Positions 26,604 to 42,902 of a DNA stretch of 64,000 bases are shown piece by piece. Below the pieces are notes generated by a model, which saw only the letters and a list, made by a program, of their open reading frames with translations, was not told the origin of the DNA and ran no database searches. The translations under genes and the position numbers were made by a program. Within the stretch, counting starts at the first letter, position 1. Every line of letters starts with the position of its first letter. The DNA comes from Akkermansia muciniphila (GTDB lineage: Bacteria; Verrucomicrobiota; Verrucomicrobiia; Limisphaerales; SIAT01). The stretch covers positions 624 through 64,623 of the forward strand of contig CAMASG010000003.1 in the NCBI GenBank assembly GCA_945860945.1, in the 5' to 3' direction.

Positions 26604-27056
26604 ATGTCCGAAATTGCCACGCCCGATCTCAAGCAGCGTCCGCCTCGCAGCGCGCGCGTCCGGCTCGGTGGCTTCGTGATCCTACCGCGCATGCTCGACA
26701 AAGGCCGCGCCGAGCTCGCCGGCAAGAACGGCGAGTACCATTACAACTGTCCGCTCGACCAGCATTGGGTGAAGTTCGCCGGTGTGAACCCCGATGCGTT
26801 GTTGGCTGAGTTGAAGATGGGGAAGGGCGACGGCGAGATTCTCGAATGGATCACCGCCAACTCCGCGCACACGCTGGCGGCGCATGAGATTCTCGCGTGG
26901 TCTGATTATCAAGATAAGCGCGGACCGACCGATCTCGAGCAGCGCGAGTTCTACTACGATCTTCACGCGCAGTTGGCTCCGCATCGGAAGGATCTCTCGA
27001 GCTGGTTCGACGTGCTCGACCTCGACGACTTCGTGAGCTACGGCGGCAAGGCCTGA
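26604..27056 (+). CDS. DUF5069-like protein
   Basis: 150 aa. PRSARVRLGGFVILPRMLDKGRAELAGKNGEYHYNCPLD matches my recollection of the DUF5069 N-terminal signature. Confidence 0.6.
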   Translation: MSEIATPDLKQRPPRSARVRLGGFVILPRMLDKGRAELAGKNGEYHYNCPLDQHWVKFAGVNPDALLAELKMGKGDGEILEWITANSAHTLAAHEILAWSDYQDKRGPTDLEQREFYYDLHAQLAPHRKDLSSWFDVLDLDDFVSYGGKA

Positions 27057-27095: not shown

Positions 27096-27401
27096 TTACT
27101 TCGCCGCGTTGGCCACCTGCCGCAGATAATCGAAGGAGAAAAGTCCCGTGCTGTGGCCGTCGCCCCAGACAGGTTGAAGAGCATAGCCGCCGACACGCCC
27201 GAGACGCGTGAGCTGAAACGATTGCGCGGTGAACGGCCGCGCAGGGCCGCGGTGAACATCGCCCATCACGTCAGTCTCCCCGCAGCAGCCCGCGCAGGGG
27301 CAGCGCTTTCGCAGCGTCTCGAGACGGACGAAACTTTCCACGCCATCGTCCCACTTGATCGCCAACTCTTCGCCAATCTGTTGAATGTCCAGCGGATGCA
27401 T
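27096..27401 (-). CDS. DUF971 (gamma-butyrobetaine hydroxylase N-terminal-like) protein
   Basis: ORF 27096..27443; the likely start is ATG 27401 (MHPLDIQQIGEELAIKWDDG). It has a Cys cluster CPCAGCCGE and a C-terminal GDGHSTGLFSFDYLR typical of DUF971. Confidence 0.65.
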   Translation of the reverse strand: MHPLDIQQIGEELAIKWDDGVESFVRLETLRKRCPCAGCCGETDVMGDVHRGPARPFTAQSFQLTRLGRVGGYALQPVWGDGHSTGLFSFDYLRQVANAAK

Positions 27402-27464
27402 ACGCTCACGGCAGGGTAAACCGCTCACCGGCGCAGCGTCCACCCCTTCCGTTGTCGGTTGTAA

Positions 27465-27483
27465 TTTTGTTTCGCAAACAAAA
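27465..27483. promoter_or_regulatory. 19-bp palindrome, candidate metal-repressor operator upstream of the metal ABC operon
   Basis: TTTTGTTT-CGC-AAACAAAA has perfect 8-bp arms. It lies 100 nt upstream of the substrate-binding-protein ATG, in the divergent intergenic region. Confidence 0.35.
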
Positions 27484-27582
27484 CATAGCCGAAGCTAACT
27501 TTTTATCTTGCCTCAAATACGGCCGCGCGTACTGTCCAGCCTCGTGCTGTGTATGGGTAGTTCGCGTTGGTTGGGAATTCTT

Positions 27583-28503
27583 ATGAAGAACATATCTGGA
27601 AAACTTTTGATGGCGGGTCTTGCCTTGATGGTCGGATCGGCTTGGCCGGCAGATGCGGCGGAGCGGAAGATTCGAGTGACCGCGACGGTCTCGATGGTGG
27701 CTGATTTGGTGAAGCAGGTCGGCGGCGACCGCGTGGAGGTCGTCGGGCTCATGGGCGCGGGCGTGGATCCGCATTTGTACAAGGCCACGGCGTCGGACGT
27801 GACGAAGCTGCAGCAGGCGGACCTGATTTTCTACAACGGCCTCGTGCTCGAAGGGAAGATGCAGGACATCCTCACCAAGCTCGCGCGTACGAAGAAGTTC
27901 GTCTATCCCGTGGCTGAGGCGATTCCCGAGAAGCAACTGCTCGAGCCGCCGCAGTTCGAGGGCCACTACGATCCGCACGTCTGGTTTGATGTGGAGCTGT
28001 GGGAGCTTTGCTCGCGCACGGTGGTGAAGGGGTTGAGCGAATTCTCGCCGAAAGACAAAGCCGGCTTCGAACAGCGGGGCAAAGAGGCGTCCGCCAAGCT
28101 GCGCGCGCTTCATGAGTGGTCGCTCAAGAAATCCGCCGAGTTGCCGAAGGAGCGGCGCATCGTCGTCACCAGCCACGACGCATACAACTACTTCGGCCGC
28201 GCGTATGGATTCCAAGTCGTCGCGCTGCAGGGCGTCTCGACCGTCACCGAGGCGGGGTTGGCCGACATGGCGAAGCTGGTGGATTACATCAAGAAAAACA
28301 AAGTGAAGGCGATCTTCGTCGAGACCAGCGTGTCGCCGGCGACCCTCCAGCGCATCAGCAAAGATGCCGGCGTGAAGATCGGCGGCGAACTGTTCAGCGA
28401 CGCGATGGGGACGCCCGGCCAGATGGAAAATGGCTACGACTTGGGCACCTACGAAGGGATGATCAAACACAACCTCACGACCATCGTCGAGGCGCTCAAG
28501 TAG
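27583..28503 (+). CDS. metal ABC transporter substrate-binding protein (TroA/ZnuA/MntC cluster)
   Basis: ORF 27508..28503; the likely start is ATG 27583 (MKNISGKLLMAGLALMVGSAWPADA, a signal peptide). It has VDPHLYKAT, DPHVWFD, VTSHDAYNYF and AIFVETSVSP motifs. Confidence 0.85.
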   Translation: MKNISGKLLMAGLALMVGSAWPADAAERKIRVTATVSMVADLVKQVGGDRVEVVGLMGAGVDPHLYKATASDVTKLQQADLIFYNGLVLEGKMQDILTKLARTKKFVYPVAEAIPEKQLLEPPQFEGHYDPHVWFDVELWELCSRTVVKGLSEFSPKDKAGFEQRGKEASAKLRALHEWSLKKSAELPKERRIVVTSHDAYNYFGRAYGFQVVALQGVSTVTEAGLADMAKLVDYIKKNKVKAIFVETSVSPATLQRISKDAGVKIGGELFSDAMGTPGQMENGYDLGTYEGMIKHNLTTIVEALK

Positions 28504-28546: not shown

Positions 28547-29413
28547 ATGAAACTCTCCCGCTCCATCGTCCTGTTGGCCGCTTCTTTCGCCGGCCTCCCC
28601 ACCGCGTTCGCCGCCGACGCGCCGCCGGATAAGTCGCAATACAATCTCTTCAAACCCACGCCGCGCCAGTGGCTGCGGGAGATGTCCACCGACCGGCCCG
28701 ACAAGACCGAGAGCCCTTACACTGTGGACGCCGGCCATTTCCAGATCGAGATGGACCTCGTCAGCTTCAGCTACGACAAATACAACACCGACCGCGACGG
28801 CACCGTCGTCCGCTCTTGGAACATCGCTCCGATGAACCTCAAGGTCGGCCTGCGCAACGACCTCGACATCCAGTTTATCGTGCAGCCGCAGACTTACGAA
28901 CGCACCTCGGACCCTGCCGCGGGCGTGTCCAAAAAGCGCGGGTTCAACGATTTCATCACCCGCGTGAAGTGGAACCTCTGGGGCAACGACGGCGGCACCA
29001 CCGCCTTCGCGCTCATGCCTTATGTCAAGCTGCCCACCAACCAGGACAACCTCGGCAACCGCTCCGTCGAGGGCGGCCTCATCGTGCCGCTCGCGGTGGA
29101 ACTCCCCGCCGGTTGGGGCATGGGCCTGATGACGCAGTTCGACATTGTTCGCGACGAGATCAGCAGCGGCTCACACCCGGAGTTTGTGAACACCGTCACC
29201 TTCGGCCACGACATCATCGGCGACCTCCGCGGCTACGTGGAATTCTACAGCAGCGTCAGCACCGAGCGTCGCTCGGACTGGGTCGGCACCGTGGACCTCG
29301 GCCTCACCTACGCCCTCACGAAGGACATCCAGCTCGACGCCGGCGTTAACATCGGCGTCACGCGCTCGGCGGACGACTGGAACCCGTTCGTCGGGGTGTC
29401 TTGGCGCTTCTGA
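28547..29413 (+). CDS. outer-membrane beta-barrel protein (transporter-like, family uncertain)
   Basis: 288 aa with signal peptide MKLSRSIVLLAASFAGLPTAFA|A. It shows alternating amphipathic strand patterns and ends ...NPFVGVSWRF with a terminal Phe, as in OMP C-terminal signatures. It resembles the so-called MetA-pathway/phenol-degradation barrel family from memory only. Confidence 0.6.
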   Translation: MKLSRSIVLLAASFAGLPTAFAADAPPDKSQYNLFKPTPRQWLREMSTDRPDKTESPYTVDAGHFQIEMDLVSFSYDKYNTDRDGTVVRSWNIAPMNLKVGLRNDLDIQFIVQPQTYERTSDPAAGVSKKRGFNDFITRVKWNLWGNDGGTTAFALMPYVKLPTNQDNLGNRSVEGGLIVPLAVELPAGWGMGLMTQFDIVRDEISSGSHPEFVNTVTFGHDIIGDLRGYVEFYSSVSTERRSDWVGTVDLGLTYALTKDIQLDAGVNIGVTRSADDWNPFVGVSWRF

Positions 29414-29595: not shown

Positions 29596-30357
29596 ATGAC
29601 TGACGCCCCGCCCCTCGAAATTCACGACCTCACAGTGGCATATCACAAGAAGCCGGTGCTGTGGGGCATCGATCTCGTCGTGCCGCGCGGAAAGCTCGTC
29701 GGCATTGTCGGCCCAAACGGCGCGGGCAAATCCACGCTCATCAAAGCCGCGATGGGGCTGATGCCCATCAGCAGCGGTTGGGTGAAAGTCTTCGGCGAAC
29801 CGGTAAAGAAAAATCTCACGCGAATCGGCTACGTGCCGCAGCGCGAATCGGTGGATTGGGATTTCCCCGTGAGCGTGATGGATGTCGTTCTGATGGGCCG
29901 CTACGGACACCTCGGCTTGCTCCGTCGGCCGAGCAAGCAGGACCGCGACATCGCCCGCGAGAGTCTCGACAAGGTGAAGATGCTGCCCTACGCGAACCGG
30001 CAGATCTCCAACCTCTCCGGCGGCCAGCAGCAGCGCGTCTTCCTCGCCCGCGCGCTTGCGCAGGAGAGCGATCTCTATTTCATGGACGAGCCGTTCGCCG
30101 GTGTGGATGCCGCCACCGAGGCCGCCATTGTCGAGCTGCTGCACGAGCTGAAGGCGCGCGGCAAGACGCTGATGATCGTGCATCACGACCTGCCCACCGC
30201 GCGCAGCTATTTCGATATGCTGCTGCTCCTGAACATGCGTGTCGTCGCGTTCGGCCCGACCAACGAGGTTTTCACCCACGACCTTCTGCAAAGCACCTAC
30301 GGCGGTCGGCTCACGATTTTGAGCGAAGTCGCCGAGGCCGTGCGGGAGAAGGGGTGA
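29596..30357 (+). CDS. metal ABC transporter ATP-binding protein
   Basis: 253 aa with Walker A GPNGAGKST, signature LSGGQQQR and Walker B LYFMDEP. It resembles ZnuC/MntB/TroB-type ATPases. Confidence 0.9.
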   Translation: MTDAPPLEIHDLTVAYHKKPVLWGIDLVVPRGKLVGIVGPNGAGKSTLIKAAMGLMPISSGWVKVFGEPVKKNLTRIGYVPQRESVDWDFPVSVMDVVLMGRYGHLGLLRRPSKQDRDIARESLDKVKMLPYANRQISNLSGGQQQRVFLARALAQESDLYFMDEPFAGVDAATEAAIVELLHELKARGKTLMIVHHDLPTARSYFDMLLLLNMRVVAFGPTNEVFTHDLLQSTYGGRLTILSEVAEAVREKG

Positions 30358-30367
30358 CTGGCGGCCG

Positions 30368-31834
30368 ATGAAACGTGGACTTCAACTCGCGCTCCTCTTT
30401 TTCGGAATCGCCTTGCCCGCGCTGACCGGCCACGCCGCGCGCATCGGCGATCTCTCGGAGACGAATATCGCGGAACAGGCGCTGCGGTTCTTCACCTTTC
30501 AGGATCCCGCGGTGCGTTACGCGCTGCTCGGCTCGATCCTGCTCGGAATCACCTGTGGCCTGCTCGGCGGCTTCATCGTCGTGCGCAAGATGGCGCTGGT
30601 CGGCGATGCGCTTTCGCACGCGGTGTTGCCCGGTGTCGCGCTCGGTTTCCTCTGGAACATGAGCAAGGATCCCCTCGCCATCTTCATCGGCGCGGTGCTC
30701 GCCGGATTGCTCGGGGCGGCGGCGGTGCATCTGATTAAGCACACCACGAGGCTGAAGGAGGACACCGCGCTCGGCCTCGTGCTCGCCTCGTTCTTCGCCG
30801 TCGGCATCTGCCTCGTGACGATGATCCAGCGTCTGCCGACCGGAAACAAAAGCGGCATCGACAAGTTCCTCTTCGGCCAAGCCGCCGCCATCGGCGCCGG
30901 TGACGTGCAGCTCATGGCCGTCGTGACCGGCCTCGCCGTGCTGGTGATTCTGCTCTTCTACAAAGAATTTCTCCTGACGAGTTTCGACGCTGGGTTCGCG
31001 CGTGCGGCGGGGTTTCCAGTTCAAGCCATTCATTACACACTGATGCTCCTGCTCGCGTTCGCGATCGTCATCGCGTTGCAGGCCGTGGGTGTCGTGCTCG
31101 TCTCGGCGATGCTCATCACGCCCGCGGCGGCGGCGTATCTGCTCACCGACCGGATGCACCGGTTGCTCGCGTTGGCGGCGATCTTCGGACTATTCGCGGG
31201 CGCACTCGGGGCGTTCCTCTCGTTCCTGCGACCGAACCTCCCGACCGGCCCGCTGATGGTGCTTGCGGCGACGACGATCTTCGTACTCGCCTTCCTGTTC
31301 GGCCCACGCCATGGCGTGTTGGCGCGTTGGTGGCGGCAACGTTCGAGCGCGGCGCGCATTCAACGCGAGAACACGCTCAAGGCCGTGTATCACGTTCTGG
31401 AAGCGCGCGAATTCAAGGGCGAAGGAGTCTCGCTGCGCGAACTCGCCGAGCGCCGTCGCGAGACAGTGAAGGACGCGCGGCAACAGGCCGGCGAGTTGCG
31501 CCGGCACGACTTCGCCTCGCTGCAGGAAGATGGTAACGCAATCTATCTCACGCCGGAGGGTTGGCAGCGCGCCTGCGCCATCGTGCGCAACCACCGGCTT
31601 TGGGAGCTTTACCTCACCAACGCCGCGCACATCGCCGCGGATCATGTGCACGAGGACGCCGAGAAGATCGAGCACGTGCTCGGTGAAGAGGTCGTGCGGC
31701 TGATCGAGAAGCGGCTCAACTACGCCACGCGCGATCCGCACGGACGCTCCATCCCCGGCCTCGCGGATTTACGTCGAGGCGCGTCGCCGGAATCGCCGGC
31801 GTCGGGCCCCACTGGTTACGGGAGGTCCGCATGA
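30368..31834 (+). CDS. metal ABC transporter permease fused to a complete C-terminal DtxR/MntR-family repressor domain (YtgC-YtgR-like)
   Basis: 488 aa. Residues 1 to about 315 form a polytopic ABC-3 permease (DALSHAVLPGVALGF). From about residue 325 the sequence aligns by eye to DtxR: a wHTH region, then NHRLWELYL...HVHEDAEKIEHVLGEEVVRLIEKRL...DPHGRSIPG. Confidence 0.8.
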   Translation: MKRGLQLALLFFGIALPALTGHAARIGDLSETNIAEQALRFFTFQDPAVRYALLGSILLGITCGLLGGFIVVRKMALVGDALSHAVLPGVALGFLWNMSKDPLAIFIGAVLAGLLGAAAVHLIKHTTRLKEDTALGLVLASFFAVGICLVTMIQRLPTGNKSGIDKFLFGQAAAIGAGDVQLMAVVTGLAVLVILLFYKEFLLTSFDAGFARAAGFPVQAIHYTLMLLLAFAIVIALQAVGVVLVSAMLITPAAAAYLLTDRMHRLLALAAIFGLFAGALGAFLSFLRPNLPTGPLMVLAATTIFVLAFLFGPRHGVLARWWRQRSSAARIQRENTLKAVYHVLEAREFKGEGVSLRELAERRRETVKDARQQAGELRRHDFASLQEDGNAIYLTPEGWQRACAIVRNHRLWELYLTNAAHIAADHVHEDAEKIEHVLGEEVVRLIEKRLNYATRDPHGRSIPGLADLRRGASPESPASGPTGYGRSA

Positions 31835-32796
31835 ACGTGCTCGTGCCCGACTTCGATTTCCACCGCGTCTTCATCGCGCCGTGGACGGAGAATCTCGCTA
31901 GCTTCGGCTGGATCACGTTGATGGGCTTCCTCGTCACGGCGACGTGCGGGTGGGTCGGCAATTTCCTCATTCTGCGCCGAATGGCGCTCGTGGGCGATGC
32001 CATCAGCCACAGCGTGCTGCCGGGGTTGGCGGTCGCCTTCCTTCTCTCGCAGAGCCGCGGCACGCTGCCGATGTTCCTCGGCGCGCTGGTCGCGGGCATT
32101 GTCGCTACCGTGCTGATTGAGTTGATTCACAAGAAATCGCGTGTGAAACAGGACGCCGCCATCGGCATCGCCTTCACGAGCCTCTTCGCGCTCGGCGTCA
32201 TCCTCATCAATCTTTACGCGGGCAAAGGCGGCGTGGACCTCGACCAGGAATGCGTGCTCTACGGCGAGATCGCCTTTGTACCTTTGGAGCCGATGGTGAT
32301 GGTTGGGGGGCAAATCCTCGGGCCGATACCCGTGGTGCGGATGGGGTTTGTCGCGCTCGCCACCGCCTTGCTCATCGCGCTTTTCTACAAAGAACTTCTC
32401 GTCAGTTCGTTCGATCCCGCGCTCGCGGTCTCGCTCGGCATCAGCGCCACGTTCGTGCACTACGCGCTGATGGGCTGGCTCTCGGTGGTGGTGGTGAGTG
32501 CGTTTGAATCGGTCGGCGCGATTCTCGTCATCGCCATGCTCATCCTGCCCGGCGCCACCGCCACGCTCCTCTCGCACCGGCTGCCGGTGATGCTCGGGTT
32601 GACGCTCCTGCACGCGGCCTTGAGCGCCGTGCTTGGCATACACCTCGCGCTCTGGCTCGATTGCTCTCCAGCCGGAGCGATGGTCGTGGCCGGCACGCTG
32701 ATTTTCGTAGCAGCGTGGATCTTCAGCCCCAGCGAAGGACTGCTCCGCCGCTGGTTCCGAGCGCGGCTGGAAGCACCCGCTGTCGGCTCCAGCTGA
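31831..32796 (+). CDS. metal ABC transporter permease (second ABC-3 subunit)
   Basis: 321 aa overlapping the previous gene by 4 nt. It has DAISHSVLPGLAVAF and multiple TM helices. Confidence 0.85.
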   Translation: MNVLVPDFDFHRVFIAPWTENLASFGWITLMGFLVTATCGWVGNFLILRRMALVGDAISHSVLPGLAVAFLLSQSRGTLPMFLGALVAGIVATVLIELIHKKSRVKQDAAIGIAFTSLFALGVILINLYAGKGGVDLDQECVLYGEIAFVPLEPMVMVGGQILGPIPVVRMGFVALATALLIALFYKELLVSSFDPALAVSLGISATFVHYALMGWLSVVVVSAFESVGAILVIAMLILPGATATLLSHRLPVMLGLTLLHAALSAVLGIHLALWLDCSPAGAMVVAGTLIFVAAWIFSPSEGLLRRWFRARLEAPAVGSS

Positions 32797-33894: not shown

Positions 33895-34551
33895 TCACGG
33901 TCGCTTCTTGGCGACGGCGTTGGTTTTCGCTTCACTCATCGGCGCAAACTTCTGCGCGCGCTGGCTGGCTTCGAAAATCTGGTCGGGCAACATCTGCAGC
34001 GAGACCTGTTCGCGCGCGTGGTGCGCGGTCTCGTGTCCCTGCCGGATGGCGAGCGTGAGCCAGAAGTAAGCGTCGGCGAGATCGGTCTTCACACCTTTTC
34101 CCTCGGCGGCGGCGAGGCCGGAGTTGAACTGAGCAACAACGTGTCCCTGCGCAGCGGCGCGGCGGAACCAGCGGACGGCTTCGGCGGCGTCCTGCTTCAC
34201 GCCGTGACCGTCGAGGTGGAGTGTACCGAGATTGATTTGCGCGCTGGCGGAACCTTGCTCGGCAGATTTGCGATACCACGCGGCGGCTTCGGCAAAATCC
34301 TGTTTCACGCCCAACCCTTTCTCGAGCGCGGCCGCGAGGTAGAACTGCGCTTCGGCGTGGTTTCGATCGGCGGCTTTGCGTAACCACTTGGCGGCTTCAG
34401 TGGGATTGGCGTTGCCGTTCGCGGCGCCCAAGTCGAACTGGGCTTGGAGATCGCCCTTCTGCGCGCGTCGCTCGAGTTTTTCCAACTCGGTTTTCGGACT
34501 GCAACCGACGAGGAGCGCGACCGCGACGAGAAGTGGAACAAGTTGTTTCAA
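33895..34551 (-). CDS. Sel1-repeat lipoprotein
   Basis: This is the 3' part of ORF 33895..34965. A TTG at 34551 gives MKQLVPLLVAVALLVGC (lipobox). Sel1 repeats follow (GDLQAQFDLG..., AEAQFYLAAALEKGLGVKQDFAEAAAWYRKSAEQG, ASAQINLGTLHLDGHGVKQDAAEAVRWFRRAAAQG). The upstream part of the long ORF overlaps the next gene in another frame. Confidence 0.7.
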   Translation of the reverse strand: MKQLVPLLVAVALLVGCSPKTELEKLERRAQKGDLQAQFDLGAANGNANPTEAAKWLRKAADRNHAEAQFYLAAALEKGLGVKQDFAEAAAWYRKSAEQGSASAQINLGTLHLDGHGVKQDAAEAVRWFRRAAAQGHVVAQFNSGLAAAEGKGVKTDLADAYFWLTLAIRQGHETAHHAREQVSLQMLPDQIFEASQRAQKFAPMSEAKTNAVAKKRP

Positions 34552-34561
34552 GGCCGAGGAA

Positions 34562-35266
34562 TCACTTCTTCGGCTCGACCCGCTTGGCCGGCGCGTTGGT
34601 CTTCGCCGGTTCGATGACGGGCTTGGAGACGTCCTTTGTGGCGGGGCTTTTGGTCTTATCGTTCTTGGGCGCGTCTTTTTTTGGCGCGTCCTTCTTCTTG
34701 CTCGGCGGCTTGGAAGAGACGGGCGTGAACTCGGAGGAGAGCCGCTGTGCTTCGGTGATTTGCACCGCGGACATGCTATTGGCAAGGATGTCGCGGGCGC
34801 GTTCAGCGGCGGTGTCGCCCGCGCTGGCGGCGAGGTTGAGCCATTTGTAAGCTTCGACCCAATTCTTGTTGCCGAGGCTGGTGTCGCGCAGAACGAGTCC
34901 GAGCTGAGCCTGCGCATCGGCGAGTCCCTGCTCGGCTGCGGCGGTGAGCCACTTCGCAGCGGCACCGGCGTCTTTGCCCACGCCGTCGCCTTTCGCGTAA
35001 AGCTTGCCGAGAGCGGACTGCGCGCGCGCGTTGTTCTGTTCAGCCGATTTGCGGAACCACTTGGCGGCCTCGACGCTGCTCTTCGCGGTACCTTGGCCGC
35101 CGAGATGCATGTTGCCGAGGATGAGCTGGGCGTTGACGTCGCCTTTATCAGCCAGCGATTTGACGGTGCCGAAATCGAGCTCGTCGGCGCGCGCTCCGGA
35201 GGCGGCGAGCGTGGCGATGCAAGTGAAGGCGAGGAGAATCCAACGGCAGGAACGGCGGCTGTTCAT
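34562..35266 (-). CDS. secreted Sel1-repeat protein with a Lys/Pro-rich tail
   Basis: ORF 34562..35302; the likely start is ATG 35266 (MNSRRSCRWILLAFTCIATLAASGARA). It has Sel1 repeats (GDVNAQLILGNMHLGGQGTAKSSVEAAKWFRKSAEQN, ARAQSALGKLYAKGDGVGKDAGAAAKWLTAAAEQG). The tail reads KPPSKKKDAPKKDAPKNDKTK. Confidence 0.75.
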   Translation of the reverse strand: MNSRRSCRWILLAFTCIATLAASGARADELDFGTVKSLADKGDVNAQLILGNMHLGGQGTAKSSVEAAKWFRKSAEQNNARAQSALGKLYAKGDGVGKDAGAAAKWLTAAAEQGLADAQAQLGLVLRDTSLGNKNWVEAYKWLNLAASAGDTAAERARDILANSMSAVQITEAQRLSSEFTPVSSKPPSKKKDAPKKDAPKNDKTKSPATKDVSKPVIEPAKTNAPAKRVEPKK

Positions 35267-35378
35267 GGTGTCAAGATTATGAATCGGCACGGCAAACATC
35301 AAGCCGCATCTGGCGGCAACGAGAGGTCAGACGCGCTGCGACCCGCAGCCGTTACGTTTGGTTTGCCGTGCGCGTGGT

Positions 35379-38300
35379 TCAGGATTCTTTGCTCAAGGCA
35401 CGGCGGCCGAGTGCGACGAGGAACGCGAGCAGTGCCACGTAGAAGGAACCCCAGAGGACGCGGTTGAACACGCCGGGCGTCTCGAGATTGGCGGCGGCGA
35501 AGGTGATGGTCATCGCTTTGCCGGTCTCGGTCTGAAGCGCTTGCGCGAAGCCGAACTGAAGGCCGCGCTGGGGCAGGTTCACGCGGAGCGGCGAGACTTT
35601 GCTGCTCGTGACTTCCTGCGCCTTGTGAACCATCGCGAGCTGTTGCTCGGCGGTTTCGTTGTCATACAACACGAACGGTTTGCCGCTGGCCTTCTCGCGC
35701 GAGAGCTCTTCATCGAGTTGGAGGGATTGCTGGCCCTGCTCAGTGGCGAGGCGCTGGCGGAGGTTGAACGAGTAGGTGTTCTGCGCATCGACCAAGTTGC
35801 GGGCTTGCGCTTTCCGGATGTCTTTCTCGAGCTTCTTCACTTCCTCGTTGTTTTTACCGAGGTCGAGGTCGTTGTTCGCGCGATAGGTTTGGCTGAGAGC
35901 TTTGTTCGCCTCCTCGATGTTTCCTTTCTTGAGGTTCTCTTGGACGAAGTTAATCGATGAGGTGACGTCGGATCGGCGCTTGGCGCGGTTCTCGTCTTCC
36001 ACCTGCGAATAATCGGTCTGCGAGAAGACGCGGACCACTTGCGCGGCTCTCCGAGCCTCGCGGCTCATCGTACCCTCGAACTTCGCGTAATCGTAGGCGG
36101 GCGGCAGGAAGAGATCCCAGCGGGCATTCTTGAGCGGCACATCGAGCGTCGGCGCGGCGAGGGCGACTTTGCCGTTCCGTTCCGGGAACTGCACGCGGCC
36201 GATGAAGGTGATGTCGATCGGGATGGTCGCGCCTTCGCCGGAACGCTCCAGCGGTAGCAGCAGCTTGCCGCCGCGGTTGGTGGGCCGCACTGGTTGACCG
36301 GCGACGAACGCCGACCAGACTTCGGTCTGCTTGTCGGGCAGGGTGAGCTTAAGGAATTGCTTACCGTTGTTGCGCACGTTGAGCGTCATCTGGGTCATCA
36401 TCTGGCCATCCTCGGTGATGACGGAGACGAGGCTCGCGCTATCCACCAACGCTTGCAATACCTCGGCGGGGTCGTGGCTACGGGCGCGCACGGCGAGTTC
36501 GTAACCGGGCCGTAGATAGCGATAGGCGAGCGTGGCGGTATCGGTCGCTACGCCGGCCCATTCGGGGACCTCGCGCGAATCGATGGGGATGAGGTCGGTG
36601 CCGGCCTTGTCTTCCGCGACCTGCAACGGCGCGCGGGCATTGAAGATCAGCATGCCGGTCTCGCGTTCCACCTTCGGATCCACGCCCTGCGCGACGATCG
36701 GCAGCACCTTGAACGCTTCGCCTTTGGTCGCGTCGAAAGGCTGCTCCCACGTGACGGTGATCGTGTAGGTGCCGCGTTTCTTGTTCTGCAATTCCACGCG
36801 CCAGAGGTCACCCTGCTGGTCGCGGCGGCGGATATCCGAGCAGTTGATTTCCACGTTCTTGAAGCCGGCAGGGATGCGGAGCTGGAACTCCTTCGTCGGC
36901 GCGTTCGCGATTTCGTATTTCACGATCGCGCGGCCGCTCACGAGCGTATCCTGCACGGTGAGGACGGTGGCGATCTCGGCGCGCACCCACGAATCAATGC
37001 GCTCGGTGGCGACGCTGAGTTTCCACGCCGGCTGCGCGGTTGGCTCACCTGTGATGAACTTGAAGGCGAGCGTGCCTGCGATCGGCAAGGACATCATCTG
37101 TTGTTTCGATTGCGCTATCGGCGCGGTGTTCTGCGCGATGGGAGCCGCCGGCAACGCGCTCACGGGGATCTCCGTGAGCCCGTCGAAGTTCTCCGTCTTC
37201 ACCTGCACGCCTTCCTCGGCGGAGACGGCGACGAAGCCGGTGAGCTTCTGCACGCCGATCGGGTGCGCGCCAACCGCGCTGACCGACTTCGGCACTTCCT
37301 TGATGAGGAGGGCGAGGTCCACGCGCAACGGATAATGGCCGAGCATGCGCTCGGTGAGCGTAACTTCGACGATGCGGTTCGTCCCCTCGGTTTTCTCAAC
37401 CCACTGCGCCAGGCGATCGCCGATCACGCGCTCGACGCGGTAGCCGGCCGGCAGGAGTTGGCGCAGGGTGAAGACGCCGACGCGCTTGATGGTGTAATCA
37501 ATCTGGCTGCTGGAAAGAAGCTGGTCGGTCGTGATGCGCAGGTGATGATGCGCGACCGCTTCGATCTGGGGCTGAACGGCCTCGACACGGCCGGCGAGTA
37601 CGATGCCCGGCTTCAGGAAACGCCACGCGGTGGTGGCGACGTCCGGCAGCGCGACGGCGCGCGTGAATTCAGAGGTATCCACCTTCTGCAAATCGCTCGT
37701 GGTGTCGGCGACGAAGCTGAGGTCGTCGCTGGTCTTGATGCCGATGAAACCGGTCTCGCGTTTCACATCGAGCGCCTGCGGCACGGCGACCTTCACCACG
37801 GCGGGCGGCACGGCGAGCGGTTGTTCGAGATCGAGAAACACGCGCCACGCGGTCGCGACGCCTTTGGCCAGCTCGACGGTGAGGATGTTCTCGCCCTTCT
37901 CATCCGCGCTGCGCCACGTGCGCACGTGATCGCCTTCCACGCGCATCAACTTCTGACCAACAGGCAGGCGGATGCGGGCGGAACGCAGCTCGCCTTGCGT
38001 GATTTGGTAATCCAGCGTCGCGCGGCTGCGGATGACGCCACCTTCGAAACTCACGAGCACGGCGTTTTGCACGAAGACGGTCGCGGAGGTTTCTTCGGCC
38101 TTCTTCACGCGCGGCGTCCACGCCAACTCGAGATGATCGGCCGCGCCGATTGTTCCATCCACACGCGTCTGCTGCGCGGCCGGCGTGGTCTTGAAAGTGA
38201 CAGCGGTGGGCAGATCCACCACGGCCTCGGGCTCGTTCAGCGTGATGGCGAGCGTGCTCGTGAGCGCGGGCGGAATGGCGAAGCTCAACTGGCGCTTCGC

Positions 38301-41300
38301 GGCATCGCCAGTGAGGCGCGTGTGGAACTTCACTTTCACTTTCGCCGCGCCGGCTTCGGCCAACCAAAGCACGAGGCCGCGACCTTCACGGAGCAACTTC
38401 GCATCCTTGGCCGTGCTGGTAAAACTTTCGACTGCGACGTCGTCGCCGAAGAGCGGGAAACGCTGGCCTGCCTTGAGCGCGGTGAAATCGAAGTCCGCCT
38501 CGACCTCGGCCACTTGCTCGCGCACGGCCGCGGTATAGGTGGCGGTGAGGAGCGTGATCGCGTTCGTGACGCTGCCGACGGCAACACCGCGGTCATCGAA
38601 TAGCTCGAAGCTGAGCTGGCGACCTTCGTGCCAGAGGACTTCCTTCGAGGGCTTTCCGTTGACGTGCCAGAAACGGGCCAGCCCATGCGGTTCGCCGGTG
38701 AGATACGTCATCTCGCGTTCGGGCTTGCCGCTGGCGTGCCACGCGCGGCTCGCGCCGTGGCGTTTGCCGGCGGCGAAAGCGATCTCCTCGCTCTTCTGAC
38801 CGTTGCGGAACCACGTGGCGGTCACGCCGTCCGCGAGGCCGAGTTTGTAACCGGCTTCACGCGCCTTCTGGCCGTTGTCGAACCAGTGCGTCTCGATGCC
38901 TTCGGATTTACCGTCTTTGTAATTCGCCTCAAACCGGCGCTGCTTGTTCTCGAAGAACCCGACGACCTTGCCGGTGTACGACACTTCCTGATTGATCTCG
39001 AACTTGGTGCCGTTGCGATCCTGCAACTGCAACTCGCGGATGACGCGCGGGCCGCCGGGCACTTCGAGCGGCGTCTCGGGCAGCACGATGATTTCAATCG
39101 GTCGAGCCAATGCAGGCAACGCGACTGGCTGCGCGACGGCGGTTTGTACGATGAAGAATCCGAGGGCGAGAACGACCGCGGCGGGGATGACGGGCGTTTC
39201 AGCAGACGGCGGCGCGGTGGGCGGCGACTTCTTACGATTGTGCCAGAGTTTCGTGATGAGCCGCGTGACTTGCCAGAGCACGACCGCGGCGGTGAGCAGC
39301 AGCGGCAGCGCGATGAGTGCGTCGCCGAGCAGACGCTGCGAGAGCAGGAAGTAAGCGATCGAACCGAGCACGAGCGCGAGACCACCCGTGATGCGGAAGG
39401 TATCGCGGTGCACCTGCTGATATTGTTTCCAGAGCAGGAACAGGCCGGCGAGGAACGCGGCGACCTGTGCGAGCGCGCGGAGGATGCTGAACTTTTGCGT
39501 CTCCATCGCGAGCGCTTCGATGCGGAGCGGTTCGCGGTTCACGTTGAGCGCCTTCGTGAAAACGATGCGTTGGCCGCTGCGCGGAATCTCGACGCGAATC
39601 GGCCGGATGCCGGCAGCCATCGCCGCGCCTTCGCCCTTGTCACCACCAGCGACAGAACCCCAACCGGCGCCGCCGCCGCCGCCCGCGCGGCCATCCACAC
39701 CGCGCACCGTGCCCATGCCGCCCTGCGGTTGGCTCGGCTGTTGGTTGCTCGGAAGAACGACGGCGGCGAGCGCACCGCCAGTGACGGAAGTGCCGGGGCC
39801 GCTCATGGGCGGCTGGGAACCTGGTGTTGCCGCCTGAGCCTGAGGCAGCGGCGGCGGTGATTTCTTAGCGGGGGAAACCCGCGAAGCGGTGGCGGAAGAA
39901 GAGGGCTGATCGCTTTCGCGCATGGGCTCCCCTTTTTGTCCGAGTTGCTGTTGCCTGTCGGCGGGCCTTTCGGCTGGTGAATTTGCATCGGGCAGGCGCT
40001 CGAAACGATCCATGCGATCGCCGTTCGCGACTTTGGCTTCGAGGCGCTCACCTTCTCCAGCGGCGGCGTCGTAGAGGTCGAGGCCTGTGGGATTGCTGAC
40101 TTCGCCGCTGGTTCTCGAGGCCGCGTATTTATAGCTGCTGAGCGTGGGCAGAAGCATTCCGGAAAGCACGAGCAAGACGAGTGCGGTGACGGCCACGCGC
40201 GCGGCGGCGCGCCAACCGCGTTGGACGGCGGTGATGATGCCGTACAGAACCACAGCGAGTGCGATGAGAACCGCAGCGAGCGCGATGAACTCGGAGGCGT
40301 GTCGGCGATAGTAGGCGCGGCACTCGTTCCACGCATCGCGCCAGCCGTAGGTGGTGCCGCGAGCGACAATCATATTGCCGTCGAAGGCGCCGAGGCGCTG
40401 GTTGGCGGGGATGTAAAGCTCCCACTCATTGTAGGTGTTGGGCACGTCGTTGGTCGGCGCGGCGAGAGCGACCTTCACGGGGAAGAAACCGGTGATGCCA
40501 CGGCGGTCGAGCGGTGTGGTGTTCTGCGCATAGACGAGATCCACGGCGATGGTCTCGTTGCGGTTCGCGCCGCGCGGCAGCGGCACGAGATACGTGTCGC
40601 CTTCTTTTTCAATCTTGGCCGGCTGGTTGTTCACGTAAGCGCTCCAGAAAACGGCGCCGGGCGGCAACGTGAAACGCTGGAATTGTTTGTCGTTATTTTT
40701 CACCATGAACGACGCCTGCGTGAGCATCTGGCCTTGCTCGGTGAGAACGGTCGTGAGCTGGGTGCGGTCGGCCACGGCGGCGAGCACGGGCAATTCGGTG
40801 AAGCGCGTGACGGCCACCGCGAGGTCGTATTTCGCGCCTTCGTATTGATAGGCGAGAAGCACGGGGCGGGCGATGAGCGCGCGGTCGTTGGCGGAAAGCT
40901 CGGCTTCATCCACGCGCCGGAGGGATTCCATTTTCAAGGGCTTCAGCTCGAGGTTGGCAGCGCTGGTGATGGCCACGGCACCGGCCTCGCGGTCCACGCC
41001 GAGCACGTGCACGCCGCCGACGGGCAGCGTGGCTTTGTGGGGATCGAACTGGGCGTCGTAAGTGATGACGAGCGTGTAACCGCCCCACGCTTTTTCCTGC
41101 AAACTGACGGTCCAATCAGCGCTGATGGTGTTCGTCCCGACAGCAGCGGATTCTTTGCGGCGGATGTTCGGGCCGGTGAACTCGACGTTCTTCCACGCGA
41201 GCGGGACACGCACCTTGAACTCCTGCACACCTTGATTGAGGATGCCGTAGCGGATGGTGGCGCTGCCACCGAGTAGGCCGTCGCCGATGGTGACGAGATT

Positions 41301-42902
41301 GAAAACCTCCGCCGTGACACGCGCGGGAAGCTTCTCCGCGCCGAGTTTGAGCGACCAATCGGGCTGCTCGGCGGTGTACGCGAGCGATTCACCCGCGCGC
41401 AGGCCGACGTTGCTGACGGGCACTTCCCGTGCGCCGATGAGCGCGCCGGTCTTGAGCTGGATGCCCGCGGCGGCAGCGGCGCCGATTTGCGAAGTCTCCT
41501 TCACCGCACCGGTGGCGCGAAGCGCGGTGACGGTGAAGGATTCGGGGAACGTTTTGAGCGCCTGCTCGAGCTGCACTTCAATCTGGCGACGGCCGAGCAC
41601 GCGGCGCGCGAAATTCACGGTGAGCTTACCGCCGACGGCCTTCCAATCCTCGATGCCTTCGCCGGTGACGCTGGCGACGACGAAGTTGGTCTGCGGCGCG
41701 AACTCGAGCGAGTAGATGCCGGCCTTCTCCACGTTGAGCCCGAGCGAATGCGAGACGAGCAGGCGCGATTCCTCGAGGCGCACGGAGGCGCGGTTGGCGA
41801 GATTCACGACGGGGTCGATCTTGCGGAGCTTGAGAGCGAGCGAAAGATTTTGGCGTCCGAAGAATTGCCACGCGGCCACAGCGCCCGCGGCGGCGTTCAT
41901 CTGGCGCAAACCGGTCGCGGTATCGGTCTCCACCAGTACATCCTCGGCGGTGACGGAGAGGGTGCCGTTCTCGCGTTCGGTCTCGAGCGGTTGCGCGGGG
42001 ACGATGGCGGCGGTCGCGCCTTCGATGGCTTGTTCGGTGAAGAGGGTGAGAGCGTAATTTTTCTCAACCGGCTTGATGAAATCGATGGTGAGCGTCTGCC
42101 GACCGTTCTCGGCTTTCACCCGCCAATCGCGGATTTGTTCGCCCTGTAATTTGATGATCGCCTGCGTGGACGGAAGCGCGACGGTGAGGTTCGTCAACTT
42201 GCCTTGCACGATTTCGTAGCGGAGCTGCGTGGTGTATTTCGCGACGCTCGGCGTGACGTGCACGCTCGCGGCGGTCTCGGCGATGAGCAGCGCTTTGCGC
42301 GCTTCCTCGGCCGCTTTGCTCTGCCAACGCAGCGAGACGAGCCGGTCCGCACCGAGAAAACCGCGCACGGTGGATTTATCGGCGGCGGGCTGCGTGGTGC
42401 CGGAGAGAAGCTGCACTTCCATTCCGCCGGCGGCCTTCGCCGTGATGGCCGCGATGGCGGAGGCAGGGCCCGTGAAACTCGCGGAGCGCCACGGCTCGAG
42501 CTTGGAAACCTTCGCGGCCAGTTCGAACTTGGCCTGATAACGGCCCGGCTTGCTGATGACGAGGTGGTATTCCTGGCCGGTGCGGATGAGGCGCAGGCCG
42601 TCGGGGAAGGCGCCCGGCGCGGCGAGCACGGCCACGTTGCCACTGAAAAGCGGCAGCACACGCTCGCGGGCGGCGGTGGACTCGACCTCGATGCTCGTGG
42701 CGAAACGGGCATCGCTCTCGCCGAGCGTCCCTTCGTAGCGCACGGAGTGGATGGTGACGACCTCGGCGGCAGCGGTGGCATTCGTGGCGCCGGCCGGCGC
42801 CGGCTGCGCGTACAATGGCGCGGCGAGAGATAATAACAGGAGCGCGGATGCAGCGAGGAGGGCGCGATGGATGGTTTTGCTGATGAGGTTGGATCGCTTC
42901 AT
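35379..42902 (-). CDS. giant (2507 aa) internally duplicated envelope/membrane protein with MORN-variant repeats; family unknown
   Basis: A single uninterrupted ORF with natural amino-acid composition. It has an N-terminal signal peptide (…LAAPLYA|QP). Two paralogous modules span residues about 40-865 and about 1440-2290. A central cluster of about 6 TM helices and a P/Q/G/S-rich linker separate them. MORN/YwqK-type repeats occupy residues about 1300-1432. It ends with a C-terminal coiled-coil-like charged region and a terminal TM helix. Confidence 0.85.
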   Translation of the reverse strand: MKRSNLISKTIHRALLAASALLLLSLAAPLYAQPAPAGATNATAAAEVVTIHSVRYEGTLGESDARFATSIEVESTAARERVLPLFSGNVAVLAAPGAFPDGLRLIRTGQEYHLVISKPGRYQAKFELAAKVSKLEPWRSASFTGPASAIAAITAKAAGGMEVQLLSGTTQPAADKSTVRGFLGADRLVSLRWQSKAAEEARKALLIAETAASVHVTPSVAKYTTQLRYEIVQGKLTNLTVALPSTQAIIKLQGEQIRDWRVKAENGRQTLTIDFIKPVEKNYALTLFTEQAIEGATAAIVPAQPLETERENGTLSVTAEDVLVETDTATGLRQMNAAAGAVAAWQFFGRQNLSLALKLRKIDPVVNLANRASVRLEESRLLVSHSLGLNVEKAGIYSLEFAPQTNFVVASVTGEGIEDWKAVGGKLTVNFARRVLGRRQIEVQLEQALKTFPESFTVTALRATGAVKETSQIGAAAAAGIQLKTGALIGAREVPVSNVGLRAGESLAYTAEQPDWSLKLGAEKLPARVTAEVFNLVTIGDGLLGGSATIRYGILNQGVQEFKVRVPLAWKNVEFTGPNIRRKESAAVGTNTISADWTVSLQEKAWGGYTLVITYDAQFDPHKATLPVGGVHVLGVDREAGAVAITSAANLELKPLKMESLRRVDEAELSANDRALIARPVLLAYQYEGAKYDLAVAVTRFTELPVLAAVADRTQLTTVLTEQGQMLTQASFMVKNNDKQFQRFTLPPGAVFWSAYVNNQPAKIEKEGDTYLVPLPRGANRNETIAVDLVYAQNTTPLDRRGITGFFPVKVALAAPTNDVPNTYNEWELYIPANQRLGAFDGNMIVARGTTYGWRDAWNECRAYYRRHASEFIALAAVLIALAVVLYGIITAVQRGWRAAARVAVTALVLLVLSGMLLPTLSSYKYAASRTSGEVSNPTGLDLYDAAAGEGERLEAKVANGDRMDRFERLPDANSPAERPADRQQQLGQKGEPMRESDQPSSSATASRVSPAKKSPPPLPQAQAATPGSQPPMSGPGTSVTGGALAAVVLPSNQQPSQPQGGMGTVRGVDGRAGGGGGAGWGSVAGGDKGEGAAMAAGIRPIRVEIPRSGQRIVFTKALNVNREPLRIEALAMETQKFSILRALAQVAAFLAGLFLLWKQYQQVHRDTFRITGGLALVLGSIAYFLLSQRLLGDALIALPLLLTAAVVLWQVTRLITKLWHNRKKSPPTAPPSAETPVIPAAVVLALGFFIVQTAVAQPVALPALARPIEIIVLPETPLEVPGGPRVIRELQLQDRNGTKFEINQEVSYTGKVVGFFENKQRRFEANYKDGKSEGIETHWFDNGQKAREAGYKLGLADGVTATWFRNGQKSEEIAFAAGKRHGASRAWHASGKPEREMTYLTGEPHGLARFWHVNGKPSKEVLWHEGRQLSFELFDDRGVAVGSVTNAITLLTATYTAAVREQVAEVEADFDFTALKAGQRFPLFGDDVAVESFTSTAKDAKLLREGRGLVLWLAEAGAAKVKVKFHTRLTGDAAKRQLSFAIPPALTSTLAITLNEPEAVVDLPTAVTFKTTPAAQQTRVDGTIGAADHLELAWTPRVKKAEETSATVFVQNAVLVSFEGGVIRSRATLDYQITQGELRSARIRLPVGQKLMRVEGDHVRTWRSADEKGENILTVELAKGVATAWRVFLDLEQPLAVPPAVVKVAVPQALDVKRETGFIGIKTSDDLSFVADTTSDLQKVDTSEFTRAVALPDVATTAWRFLKPGIVLAGRVEAVQPQIEAVAHHHLRITTDQLLSSSQIDYTIKRVGVFTLRQLLPAGYRVERVIGDRLAQWVEKTEGTNRIVEVTLTERMLGHYPLRVDLALLIKEVPKSVSAVGAHPIGVQKLTGFVAVSAEEGVQVKTENFDGLTEIPVSALPAAPIAQNTAPIAQSKQQMMSLPIAGTLAFKFITGEPTAQPAWKLSVATERIDSWVRAEIATVLTVQDTLVSGRAIVKYEIANAPTKEFQLRIPAGFKNVEINCSDIRRRDQQGDLWRVELQNKKRGTYTITVTWEQPFDATKGEAFKVLPIVAQGVDPKVERETGMLIFNARAPLQVAEDKAGTDLIPIDSREVPEWAGVATDTATLAYRYLRPGYELAVRARSHDPAEVLQALVDSASLVSVITEDGQMMTQMTLNVRNNGKQFLKLTLPDKQTEVWSAFVAGQPVRPTNRGGKLLLPLERSGEGATIPIDITFIGRVQFPERNGKVALAAPTLDVPLKNARWDLFLPPAYDYAKFEGTMSREARRAAQVVRVFSQTDYSQVEDENRAKRRSDVTSSINFVQENLKKGNIEEANKALSQTYRANNDLDLGKNNEEVKKLEKDIRKAQARNLVDAQNTYSFNLRQRLATEQGQQSLQLDEELSREKASGKPFVLYDNETAEQQLAMVHKAQEVTSSKVSPLRVNLPQRGLQFGFAQALQTETGKAMTITFAAANLETPGVFNRVLWGSFYVALLAFLVALGRRALSKES

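Follow-up and report, generated by a model that had tools for sequence, protein, structure and literature searches.

A permease-metalloregulator fusion in a verrucomicrobial metal-uptake operon: a counterpart of chlamydial YtgC-YtgR with a conserved candidate operator

The known system closest to the protein considered in this work is YtgC-YtgR (YtgCR; CT069/CTL0325), encoded within the ytgABCD operon of Chlamydia trachomatis, in which a metal permease of the ABC-3 type continues into a DtxR-like regulator. Both the cleavage of YtgCR and autorepression have been documented (PMC5599777, PMC7755916). The released YtgR fragment, which was seen by immunoblot in Chlamydia and in E. coli, is of about 28-30 kDa, that is, larger than the domain itself (PMC5599777, PMC7755916). 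According to a review, orthologs of this permease-repressor fusion had been recognized by Thompson et al. in 2012 across 11 phyla of bacteria (PMC5599777), and a literature search retrieved no study of such a fusion outside Chlamydia. Here we describe one of them, found in a 64-kb stretch of DNA (64,000 nucleotides of contig CAMASG010000003.1, assembly GCA_945860945.1; hereafter, the window) from a soil or freshwater Verrucomicrobium, a member of the PVC bacteria, together with the operon in which it lies and a candidate operator upstream of that operon.

The fusion is encoded by an uninterrupted open reading frame (ORF) on the forward strand, spanning positions 30368-31834, and consists of 488 residues, with the permease and the regulator in one frame. 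This combination had been proposed in a first-pass annotation made by reading the sequence by eye, and it was borne out by Pfam, since PF00950 matches residues 47-311 and Fe_dep_repr_C (PF02742) matches residues 395-463 (E 7.7e-22). The same annotation had likened the architecture to that of YtgCR. When the protein was compared by BLASTP with the chlamydial sequences (those given in PMC7755916, Supplementary Data 5), it aligned end to end, with 30-34% identity over residues 37/44-463 and E values from 1e-62 to 1e-73; for instance, the identity was 34% over residues 37-463 for Simkania YtgCR (E 1e-73) and 30% over residues 44-463 for that of C. trachomatis L2 (E 3e-64). The matches of the unfused second permease of the same operon to chlamydial YtgCR were far weaker (E 1e-15 to 3e-23). 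In addition, the window protein and C. trachomatis YtgCR have the same permease tail motif, P-x-x-G-x-[LIV]-x-R, and the same spacing between G316 and E334, and a motif of this kind, P-x-x-G-x-L-x-R-W, is shared by the fusion junction and the C-terminal end of the unfused permease. The common motif and the equal spacing indicate that the regulator was appended directly to the natural C-terminal tail of a permease. The likeness thus extends to full-length homology and to the length of the junction, and the fusion is the verrucomicrobial counterpart of chlamydial YtgC-YtgR. When the regulator domain was taken alone, it scored 48-69 bits against YtgR and 69 bits against free DtxR. That it scores no better against the former is explained by the chlamydial winged helix-turn-helix (wHTH), which has diverged much further and contains an insertion. 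In a neighbor-joining tree of 63 fusions, with the unfused permease as outgroup, the chlamydial clade was not sister to that of the window protein, although this tree is star-like and includes neither bootstrap values nor free regulators.

The architecture proved to be common. All of the 120 best database matches share the two domains and a length of 470-540 residues, those bearing a name come from Verrucomicrobiota, and many are called 'permease subunit/Mn-dependent DtxR family transcriptional regulator' by JGI. With six narrow peptide patterns, close relatives were identified in at least 291 species representatives of GTDB, and the 80 with the best matches (65-92% identity) are all Verrucomicrobiota, from Pedosphaera/Limisphaerales, Chthoniobacterales, Terrimicrobiaceae and Methylacidiphilales. 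A HMMER search with the regulator only yielded 651 clusters (clustering at 50% identity) at E<1e-10. Among the best 150 of them, 59 are full-length fusions and nearly all of the others are fragments in which the permease tail is retained, and the named distant fusion clusters include Bacteroidota/Ignavibacteriota and Deltaproteobacteria/'bacterium HR37'. The first-pass suggestion that the fusion extends beyond Chlamydiae was therefore right as to its breadth, in view of these species, but not as to its novelty, given the 11 phyla reported in 2012 and recounted in the review cited above (PMC5599777). The fusion is genuine and well conserved, and it is of a kind already known and widely distributed; the picture of widespread fusions drawn in 2012, as that review relays it, is unchanged. 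Some distant relatives depart from the common layout, with the regulator in the middle of the protein or with an extra C-terminal region of about 90 residues after it (P0224, of 612 residues, and P0228 and P0248, of 513-531 residues). Several metagenome-assembled genome records with clearly verrucomicrobial operons (L015, L026, L002, L004, L006, L030 and others) are titled, among other names, Klebsiella, Akkermansia muciniphila, Chitinophaga pinensis or Methylomirabilota, titles that are probably placeholders or wrong taxon labels.

The fold of both halves was examined on an AlphaFold2 model built on 71 diverse fusions, 29-88% identical to the window protein (pLDDT 88.9, pTM 0.80), and the same set served to assess the conservation of ligands. 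By Foldseek, the permease half of the model matched PsaC (7kyp) with a target-normalized TM-score of 0.92 and 39% identity. It also conserves, as in PsaC, the transmembrane Asp/His motif GDAxSHAxLPG, and D80, H84, P88 and G89 are invariant in the 71 fusions. The ABC-3 core is predicted to be N-out and C-in, solely on the basis of the positive-inside rule. It is preceded by an extension (residues 1-46) found in many representatives of the fusion clusters and missing from chlamydial YtgCR. The hydrophobic helix of this extension, at residues 4-20 (modeled with a pLDDT of about 65), may be a cleaved signal peptide or a tenth transmembrane helix; as a signal or anchor it would end in GHA|A. A conserved A-R-I-G/S-D/E motif comes after it. 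The junction was modeled as one continuous helix, from residue 317 to 346.

As for the regulator half, the whole-protein NCBIfam models DtxR and MntR align, from their positions 11/21 to 145, with residues 334/352-471, and in alignments with the PDB sequences of 5zr4, DtxR, IdeR and SloR, residues ~344-475 correspond to DtxR residues 12-144, the wHTH included. The model shows helices at 356-363 and 367-379 and a two-strand wing, and Foldseek superimposed this half on DR2539 (a Mn repressor), IdeR, DtxR and SloR with a root-mean-square deviation of 1.8-2.3 Å over ~137 residues, again with the wHTH. A DtxR/MntR-type wHTH is thus present in the fusion. The first-pass annotation had aligned this half with the whole of DtxR; the alignment stands for domains 1 and 2 but not for the SH3-like third domain, which is absent from the model, where the DPHG motif is followed by ~25 disordered residues (pLDDT <50 for residues 474-488). 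Because it lacks this domain, the regulator belongs with the two-domain subclass formed by TroR, MntR and DR2539. Separate production of a free regulator from an internal start codon was considered and found unlikely, since the relatives have I, V, T or M at residue 332 and residues 312-334 include no conserved Met.

The residues expected to bind the metal had been correctly numbered by eye as H409/E413 and H428/E432/E435/H436. Across the 71 fusions, H409, E413, H428, E435 and H436 are invariant, as are D456, P457 and H458, and E432, E334 and N335 are nearly so. A DtxR segment quoted as CPHGNPIPG, to which the DPH region had been compared, was mistaken: in the PDB sequence alignment DtxR reads SPFGNPIPG. 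Asn335 and Glu432 stand where DtxR has its sulphur ligands, Met10 and Cys102, a Mn-like arrangement. Over 80 orthologous loci, the mean identity is 0.83 for the metal and dimerization domain, 0.62 for the helix-turn-helix (HTH) and 0.44 for the wing. The sequence LRELAERRRET, which lies within helix 356-363 and immediately beyond it, is strongly conserved in the 80 orthologs, as is one face of HTH helix 3, and T366, A370, Q373 and L377 are conserved as well; judging from these alignments, the wHTH is under purifying selection.

The fusion is part of a compact operon in which the genes for a binding protein, an outer-membrane barrel and an ABC ATPase precede it and that for the unfused permease follows, the start of the latter overlapping the stop codon of the fusion (ATGA). 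The coordinates are collected in Table 1. This order, with or without the barrel gene, is conserved in 80 verrucomicrobial loci, and the second permease lies downstream of the fusion in every related locus that reaches far enough, in keeping with the first-pass remark that a PVC-type genome carries an unfused permease behind the fused one. The ATPase is 76-94% identical to the ATPases of all relatives. The true start of the binding protein is the ATG at 27583, which is followed by a signal peptide, and its closest solved relative is Treponema pallidum TroA (1toa, E 7.6e-69). In the alignment to TroA, the motifs at the four metal-ligand positions, reported to be His68, His133, His199 and Asp279, are all kept. 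The proximity to TroA and the retention of these motifs characterize the system as Tro/Ytg-like. Moreover, one operon brings together an ABC-3 fold with its Asp/His motif, an ABC ATPase and a binding protein of the ZnuA family, which fits the cluster A-I (Tro/Psa/Mnt/Znu) importers. The barrel gene also occurs between the binding protein and ATPase genes in many verrucomicrobial relatives, and its product may be the route by which the metal enters through the outer membrane.

The alignment of related operon leaders brought out an element, AAAnTTAGnCnnGnCTAAcTTT, of the AAAnTTAG-N6-CTAAnTTT type. The aligned boxes have the consensus aAA.tTAG.c..g.CTAAcTTT, and a fixed 5 nt later comes TTGAC (-35), with TAccTT (-10) located ~16-17 nt beyond it in the related leaders. 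The core TAG-N6-CTA was found in 49 of the 63 leaders of binding-protein genes of relatives. Out of 75 such boxes in all 680 kb of related loci, 65 fall within the 23.9 kb of leaders, which represents a ~180-fold enrichment. In the window the box is unique (0.05 chance matches expected), and from these comparisons we infer it to be the operator. In relatives belonging to Chthoniobacterales and Terrimicrobiaceae, there is overlap between the box and the predicted -10, the classical geometry of repression, and in several relatives two or three boxes span the -35 and the -10. One clade has variant boxes (TGTAGC..GCTACA) and, in the recognition helix, L/V in place of A/S at residue 374, a co-variation that is suggestive. 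The TTAG-N6-CTAA half-sites, with their spacing, occur twice in the DtxR consensus TTAGGTTAGCCTAACCTAA, overlapping by 5 bp. That consensus is read, from DtxR-DNA structures, as two dimer sites. The DtxR operator is a 19-bp double site, whereas a single palindrome of 14-22 bp is found here (for a list of known DtxR sites, see PMC524172).

Two further features of the leaders deserve mention. In loci L025, L027, L030, L034 and L040, three consecutive boxes lie ~80-150 nt upstream of the start of the binding-protein gene, their own starts 19 and 28 nt apart, with the -35 hexamer TTGACA as the N6 of the middle box and the third box near the -10; this disposition suggests cooperative repression by several dimers in those species. 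The site that the first-pass annotation had singled out as a target for the regulator, at 27465-27483, does exist as a perfect AT-rich 8+3+8 palindrome, TTTTGTTTCGCAAACAAAA, but it was rejected as a conserved operator, since a copy with three or fewer mismatches appears at the homologous position in 1 of 80 loci, and what is conserved is the DtxR-like box that it abuts. The single relative with the palindrome is the closest locus (L002), and its copy is degenerate. Perhaps a different factor binds the palindrome in this lineage, or the palindrome belongs to the divergent gene's promoter.

Table 1. Features of the metal-uptake operon, the fusion protein and their surroundings (positions in the window; E values from Pfam searches).
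Feature	Position	Strand	Basis or remark
DUF5069 gene	26604-27056	+	Beside the DUF971 gene
GBBH-like_N/DUF971 gene	27096-27443	-	Cys-rich CPCAGCCGE motif; divergent from the operon
Candidate operator, AAACATAGCCGAAGCTAACTTT	27481-27502	.	DtxR-box-like palindrome; core TAG-N6-CTA at 27486-27497
Predicted promoter	27508-27535	+	-35 TTGCCT (27508-27513), 16-nt spacer, -10 TACTGT (27530-27535); inferred, aligns with TTGAC...TAccTT of relatives
TroA-like periplasmic metal-binding protein (YtgA/TroA equivalent)	27583-28503	+	ZnuA, E 6.3e-77
Outer-membrane beta-barrel gene	28547-29413	+	Phenol_MetA_deg (PF13557), E 2e-23
ABC ATPase (YtgB/TroB equivalent)	29596-30357	+	ABC_tran, E 1.9e-26
Fusion, N-terminal extension (residues 1-46)	30368-30505	+	Hydrophobic helix at residues 4-20, then conserved A-R-I-G-D motif
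Fusion, ABC-3 permease domain (residues 47-311; YtgC/TroC equivalent)	30506-31300	+	PF00950, E 1.5e-73
Fusion, permease C-terminal tail and junction (residues 312-333), GPRHGVLARWWRQRSSAARIQR	31301-31366	+	Part of a continuous modeled helix
Fusion, DtxR/MntR-type two-domain regulator (residues 334-463)	31367-31756	+	Pfam, NCBIfam, PDB alignments, model, Foldseek
Layout of the regulator			Helix 1 with E334/N335; wHTH, residues 356-395; dimerization and metal domain, residues 396-463
Fusion, C-terminal tail (residues 464-488) and stop codon	31757-31834	+	Disordered, poorly conserved; mean identity 0.40 (80 loci)
Unfused second ABC-3 permease (YtgD/TroD equivalent)	31831-32796	+	PF00950, E 5.2e-50

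These observations can be integrated in a model, to which we assign a probability of roughly 0.7, in which the fusion is the first permease of a TroABCD/YtgABCD-type importer of a divalent metal (Mn, Zn or Fe), provided with an appended metalloregulator that carries out the metal-dependent autorepression of the operon. The conserved box, the conservation of the HTH helices and the co-variation at residue 374 speak for DNA binding by the domain and for autoregulation of the operon. In this model, the imported metal would build up in the cytoplasm and fill the His/Glu/Asp sites of the regulator, two metal-filled domains would dimerize, and the dimer would bind the TTAG-N6-CTAA box at 27481-27502, turning off the transcription of the uptake operon and perhaps also that of the divergent DUF971 gene. 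Since each transporter is expected to pair the fusion with the unfused permease as a heterodimer, it would carry a single regulator domain. Consequently, dimerization most plausibly needs the proteolytic release of the regulator, as reported for YtgCR and, by analogy, proposed for the window protein. The fragment of ~18 kDa envisaged in the first-pass annotation is a matter of pure analogy, and the product reported in Chlamydia is larger.

A number of findings weigh against this model. First, PF01325, the Pfam model for the wHTH, gave no match in the C-terminal 175 residues even at E<=10, and it matches 3 of the 71 fusion relatives, weakly. Support for the wHTH that the first-pass annotation proposed to look for by profile searches therefore comes from whole-protein profiles and from the fold, and not from PF01325, which fails on the family. 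Second, the cues to the identity of the metal are ambiguous: the regulator is Mn-like, the TroA-like binding protein suggests Zn or Mn, and YtgR, which shares its Glu with the window protein, is reported to respond to Fe. Third, the promoter is a consensus-style prediction that a generic sigma-70 scan missed, and in the clade of the window the box precedes the predicted transcription start by ~46-59 bp and sits immediately before the -35, a position atypical for a repressor. Fourth, the co-variation between box and recognition helix amounts essentially to one phylogenetic event. Finally, the modeled junction is a rigid, continuous helix of conserved length, and not a floppy, cleavage-prone linker.

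This last point bears on an alternative that we regard as unlikely, namely, that the regulator remains tethered and is never cleaved, so that two domains would be brought together by a pair of transporters or by homodimerization of the fusion, and the operator would be bound at the membrane. Such an arrangement would suit the junction, a short helix that is conserved and runs on from the permease tail, and the identical length of the linker from Verrucomicrobiota to Chlamydia, and it has been noted in a review that full-length YtgC might repress in the manner of a membrane-anchored LacI (PMC5599777). Nonetheless, a second, unfused permease is always encoded, from which one domain per transporter is expected, and a released fragment was seen in both Chlamydia and E. 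coli. Somewhat less probable is a dual role, in which an unreleased domain, held on its rigid helix beside the ATPase, would brake its own transporter and, when two transporters pair, capture the operator at the membrane; if this were true, one protein would couple transport activity and transcription directly. More doubtful still is the notion that the DtxR-like domain is a metal sensor acting in cis, which would brake its own transporter (trans-inhibition) with a vestigial capacity to bind DNA. The model places the domain rigidly beside the ATPase-facing side of the permease, the metal and dimerization domain is better conserved than the HTH and the wing, and PF01325 does not recognize the family, all of which fits this notion. 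Against it, a palindrome of DtxR-type half-sites is conserved in the operon leaders of most relatives, strong conservation is found in helix 2 of the HTH and on one side of helix 3, and YtgR demonstrably represses promoters. As for an artefact in which a sequencing or assembly frameshift or a lost stop codon would join separate permease and regulator genes, its probability is negligible and the comparative data refute it, since the same uninterrupted architecture recurs in all 120 best matches, 80 independent loci, 59 distant full-length representatives and Chlamydiae, and the only entries that could speak for it, short ones beginning at the regulator domain (e.g., P0127 and P0139), look like fragmentary gene calls.

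Regarding the surroundings of the operon, the DUF971 and DUF5069 genes are syntenic with it in many relatives, and the DUF971 gene may be co-regulated with the operon, because the conserved box sits in the intergenic region that they share. No second DtxR-like gene was found in the 64-kb window. Downstream of the operon, the reverse strand carries, at 33895-35302 and 35379-42902, two ORFs whose repeated motifs resemble Sel1/TPR-type repeats by eye and a 2507-residue ORF that has predicted membrane segments and a low-complexity middle part rich in Pro and Gly.

What this work adds is the conserved candidate operator, the recognition of the system as Tro-like and an indication of how large the free-living family is. 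Work on YtgCR has so far been carried out in Chlamydia, an obligate intracellular bacterium that is genetically hard to manipulate. A very large family of free-living Verrucomicrobiota with the same architecture, a well-conserved domain and a clean, conserved candidate operator offers an accessible experimental setting, in which the questions raised by YtgCR could be approached: the protease, the need for cleavage, the metal sensed and the reason for a fixed ratio between regulator and transporter.

When set beside the known systems, the locus is nearest to that of YtgC-YtgR, with which it shares the single ORF, the metal-site pattern (H..E, H...E..EH, DPH) and a gene order in which the binding protein and the ATPase are followed by the fused and then the unfused permease. 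It differs in that the window protein has a 46-residue hydrophobic N-terminal extension and lacks the WWW motif, and in that its operon has the additional gene for the outer-membrane barrel; cleavage, the response to Fe and the regulation of trp have been shown for Chlamydia only. The T. pallidum TroABCD-TroR system resembles it in the binding protein, TroA being the nearest solved one with its ligand positions kept, and in having two permease genes. TroR, a two-domain DtxR-family protein that also lacks the SH3-like domain, has its own gene, the last of the operon, and is not fused to the first permease. The Mn importer PsaBC(A) of Streptococcus pneumoniae has the same permease fold and the GDAxSHAxLPG motif; in this system the regulator is a distinct protein, PsaR, and PsaC homodimerizes and lacks a regulator domain. 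Lastly, Deinococcus DR2539, MntR and DtxR/IdeR have in common with the fused regulator the wHTH and dimerization fold, the metal ligands and the TTAG/CTAA half-sites separated by N6, but they are free cytoplasmic proteins, and DtxR/IdeR possess, in addition, the SH3-like third domain and Met10/Cys102 in the places of Asn335/Glu432.

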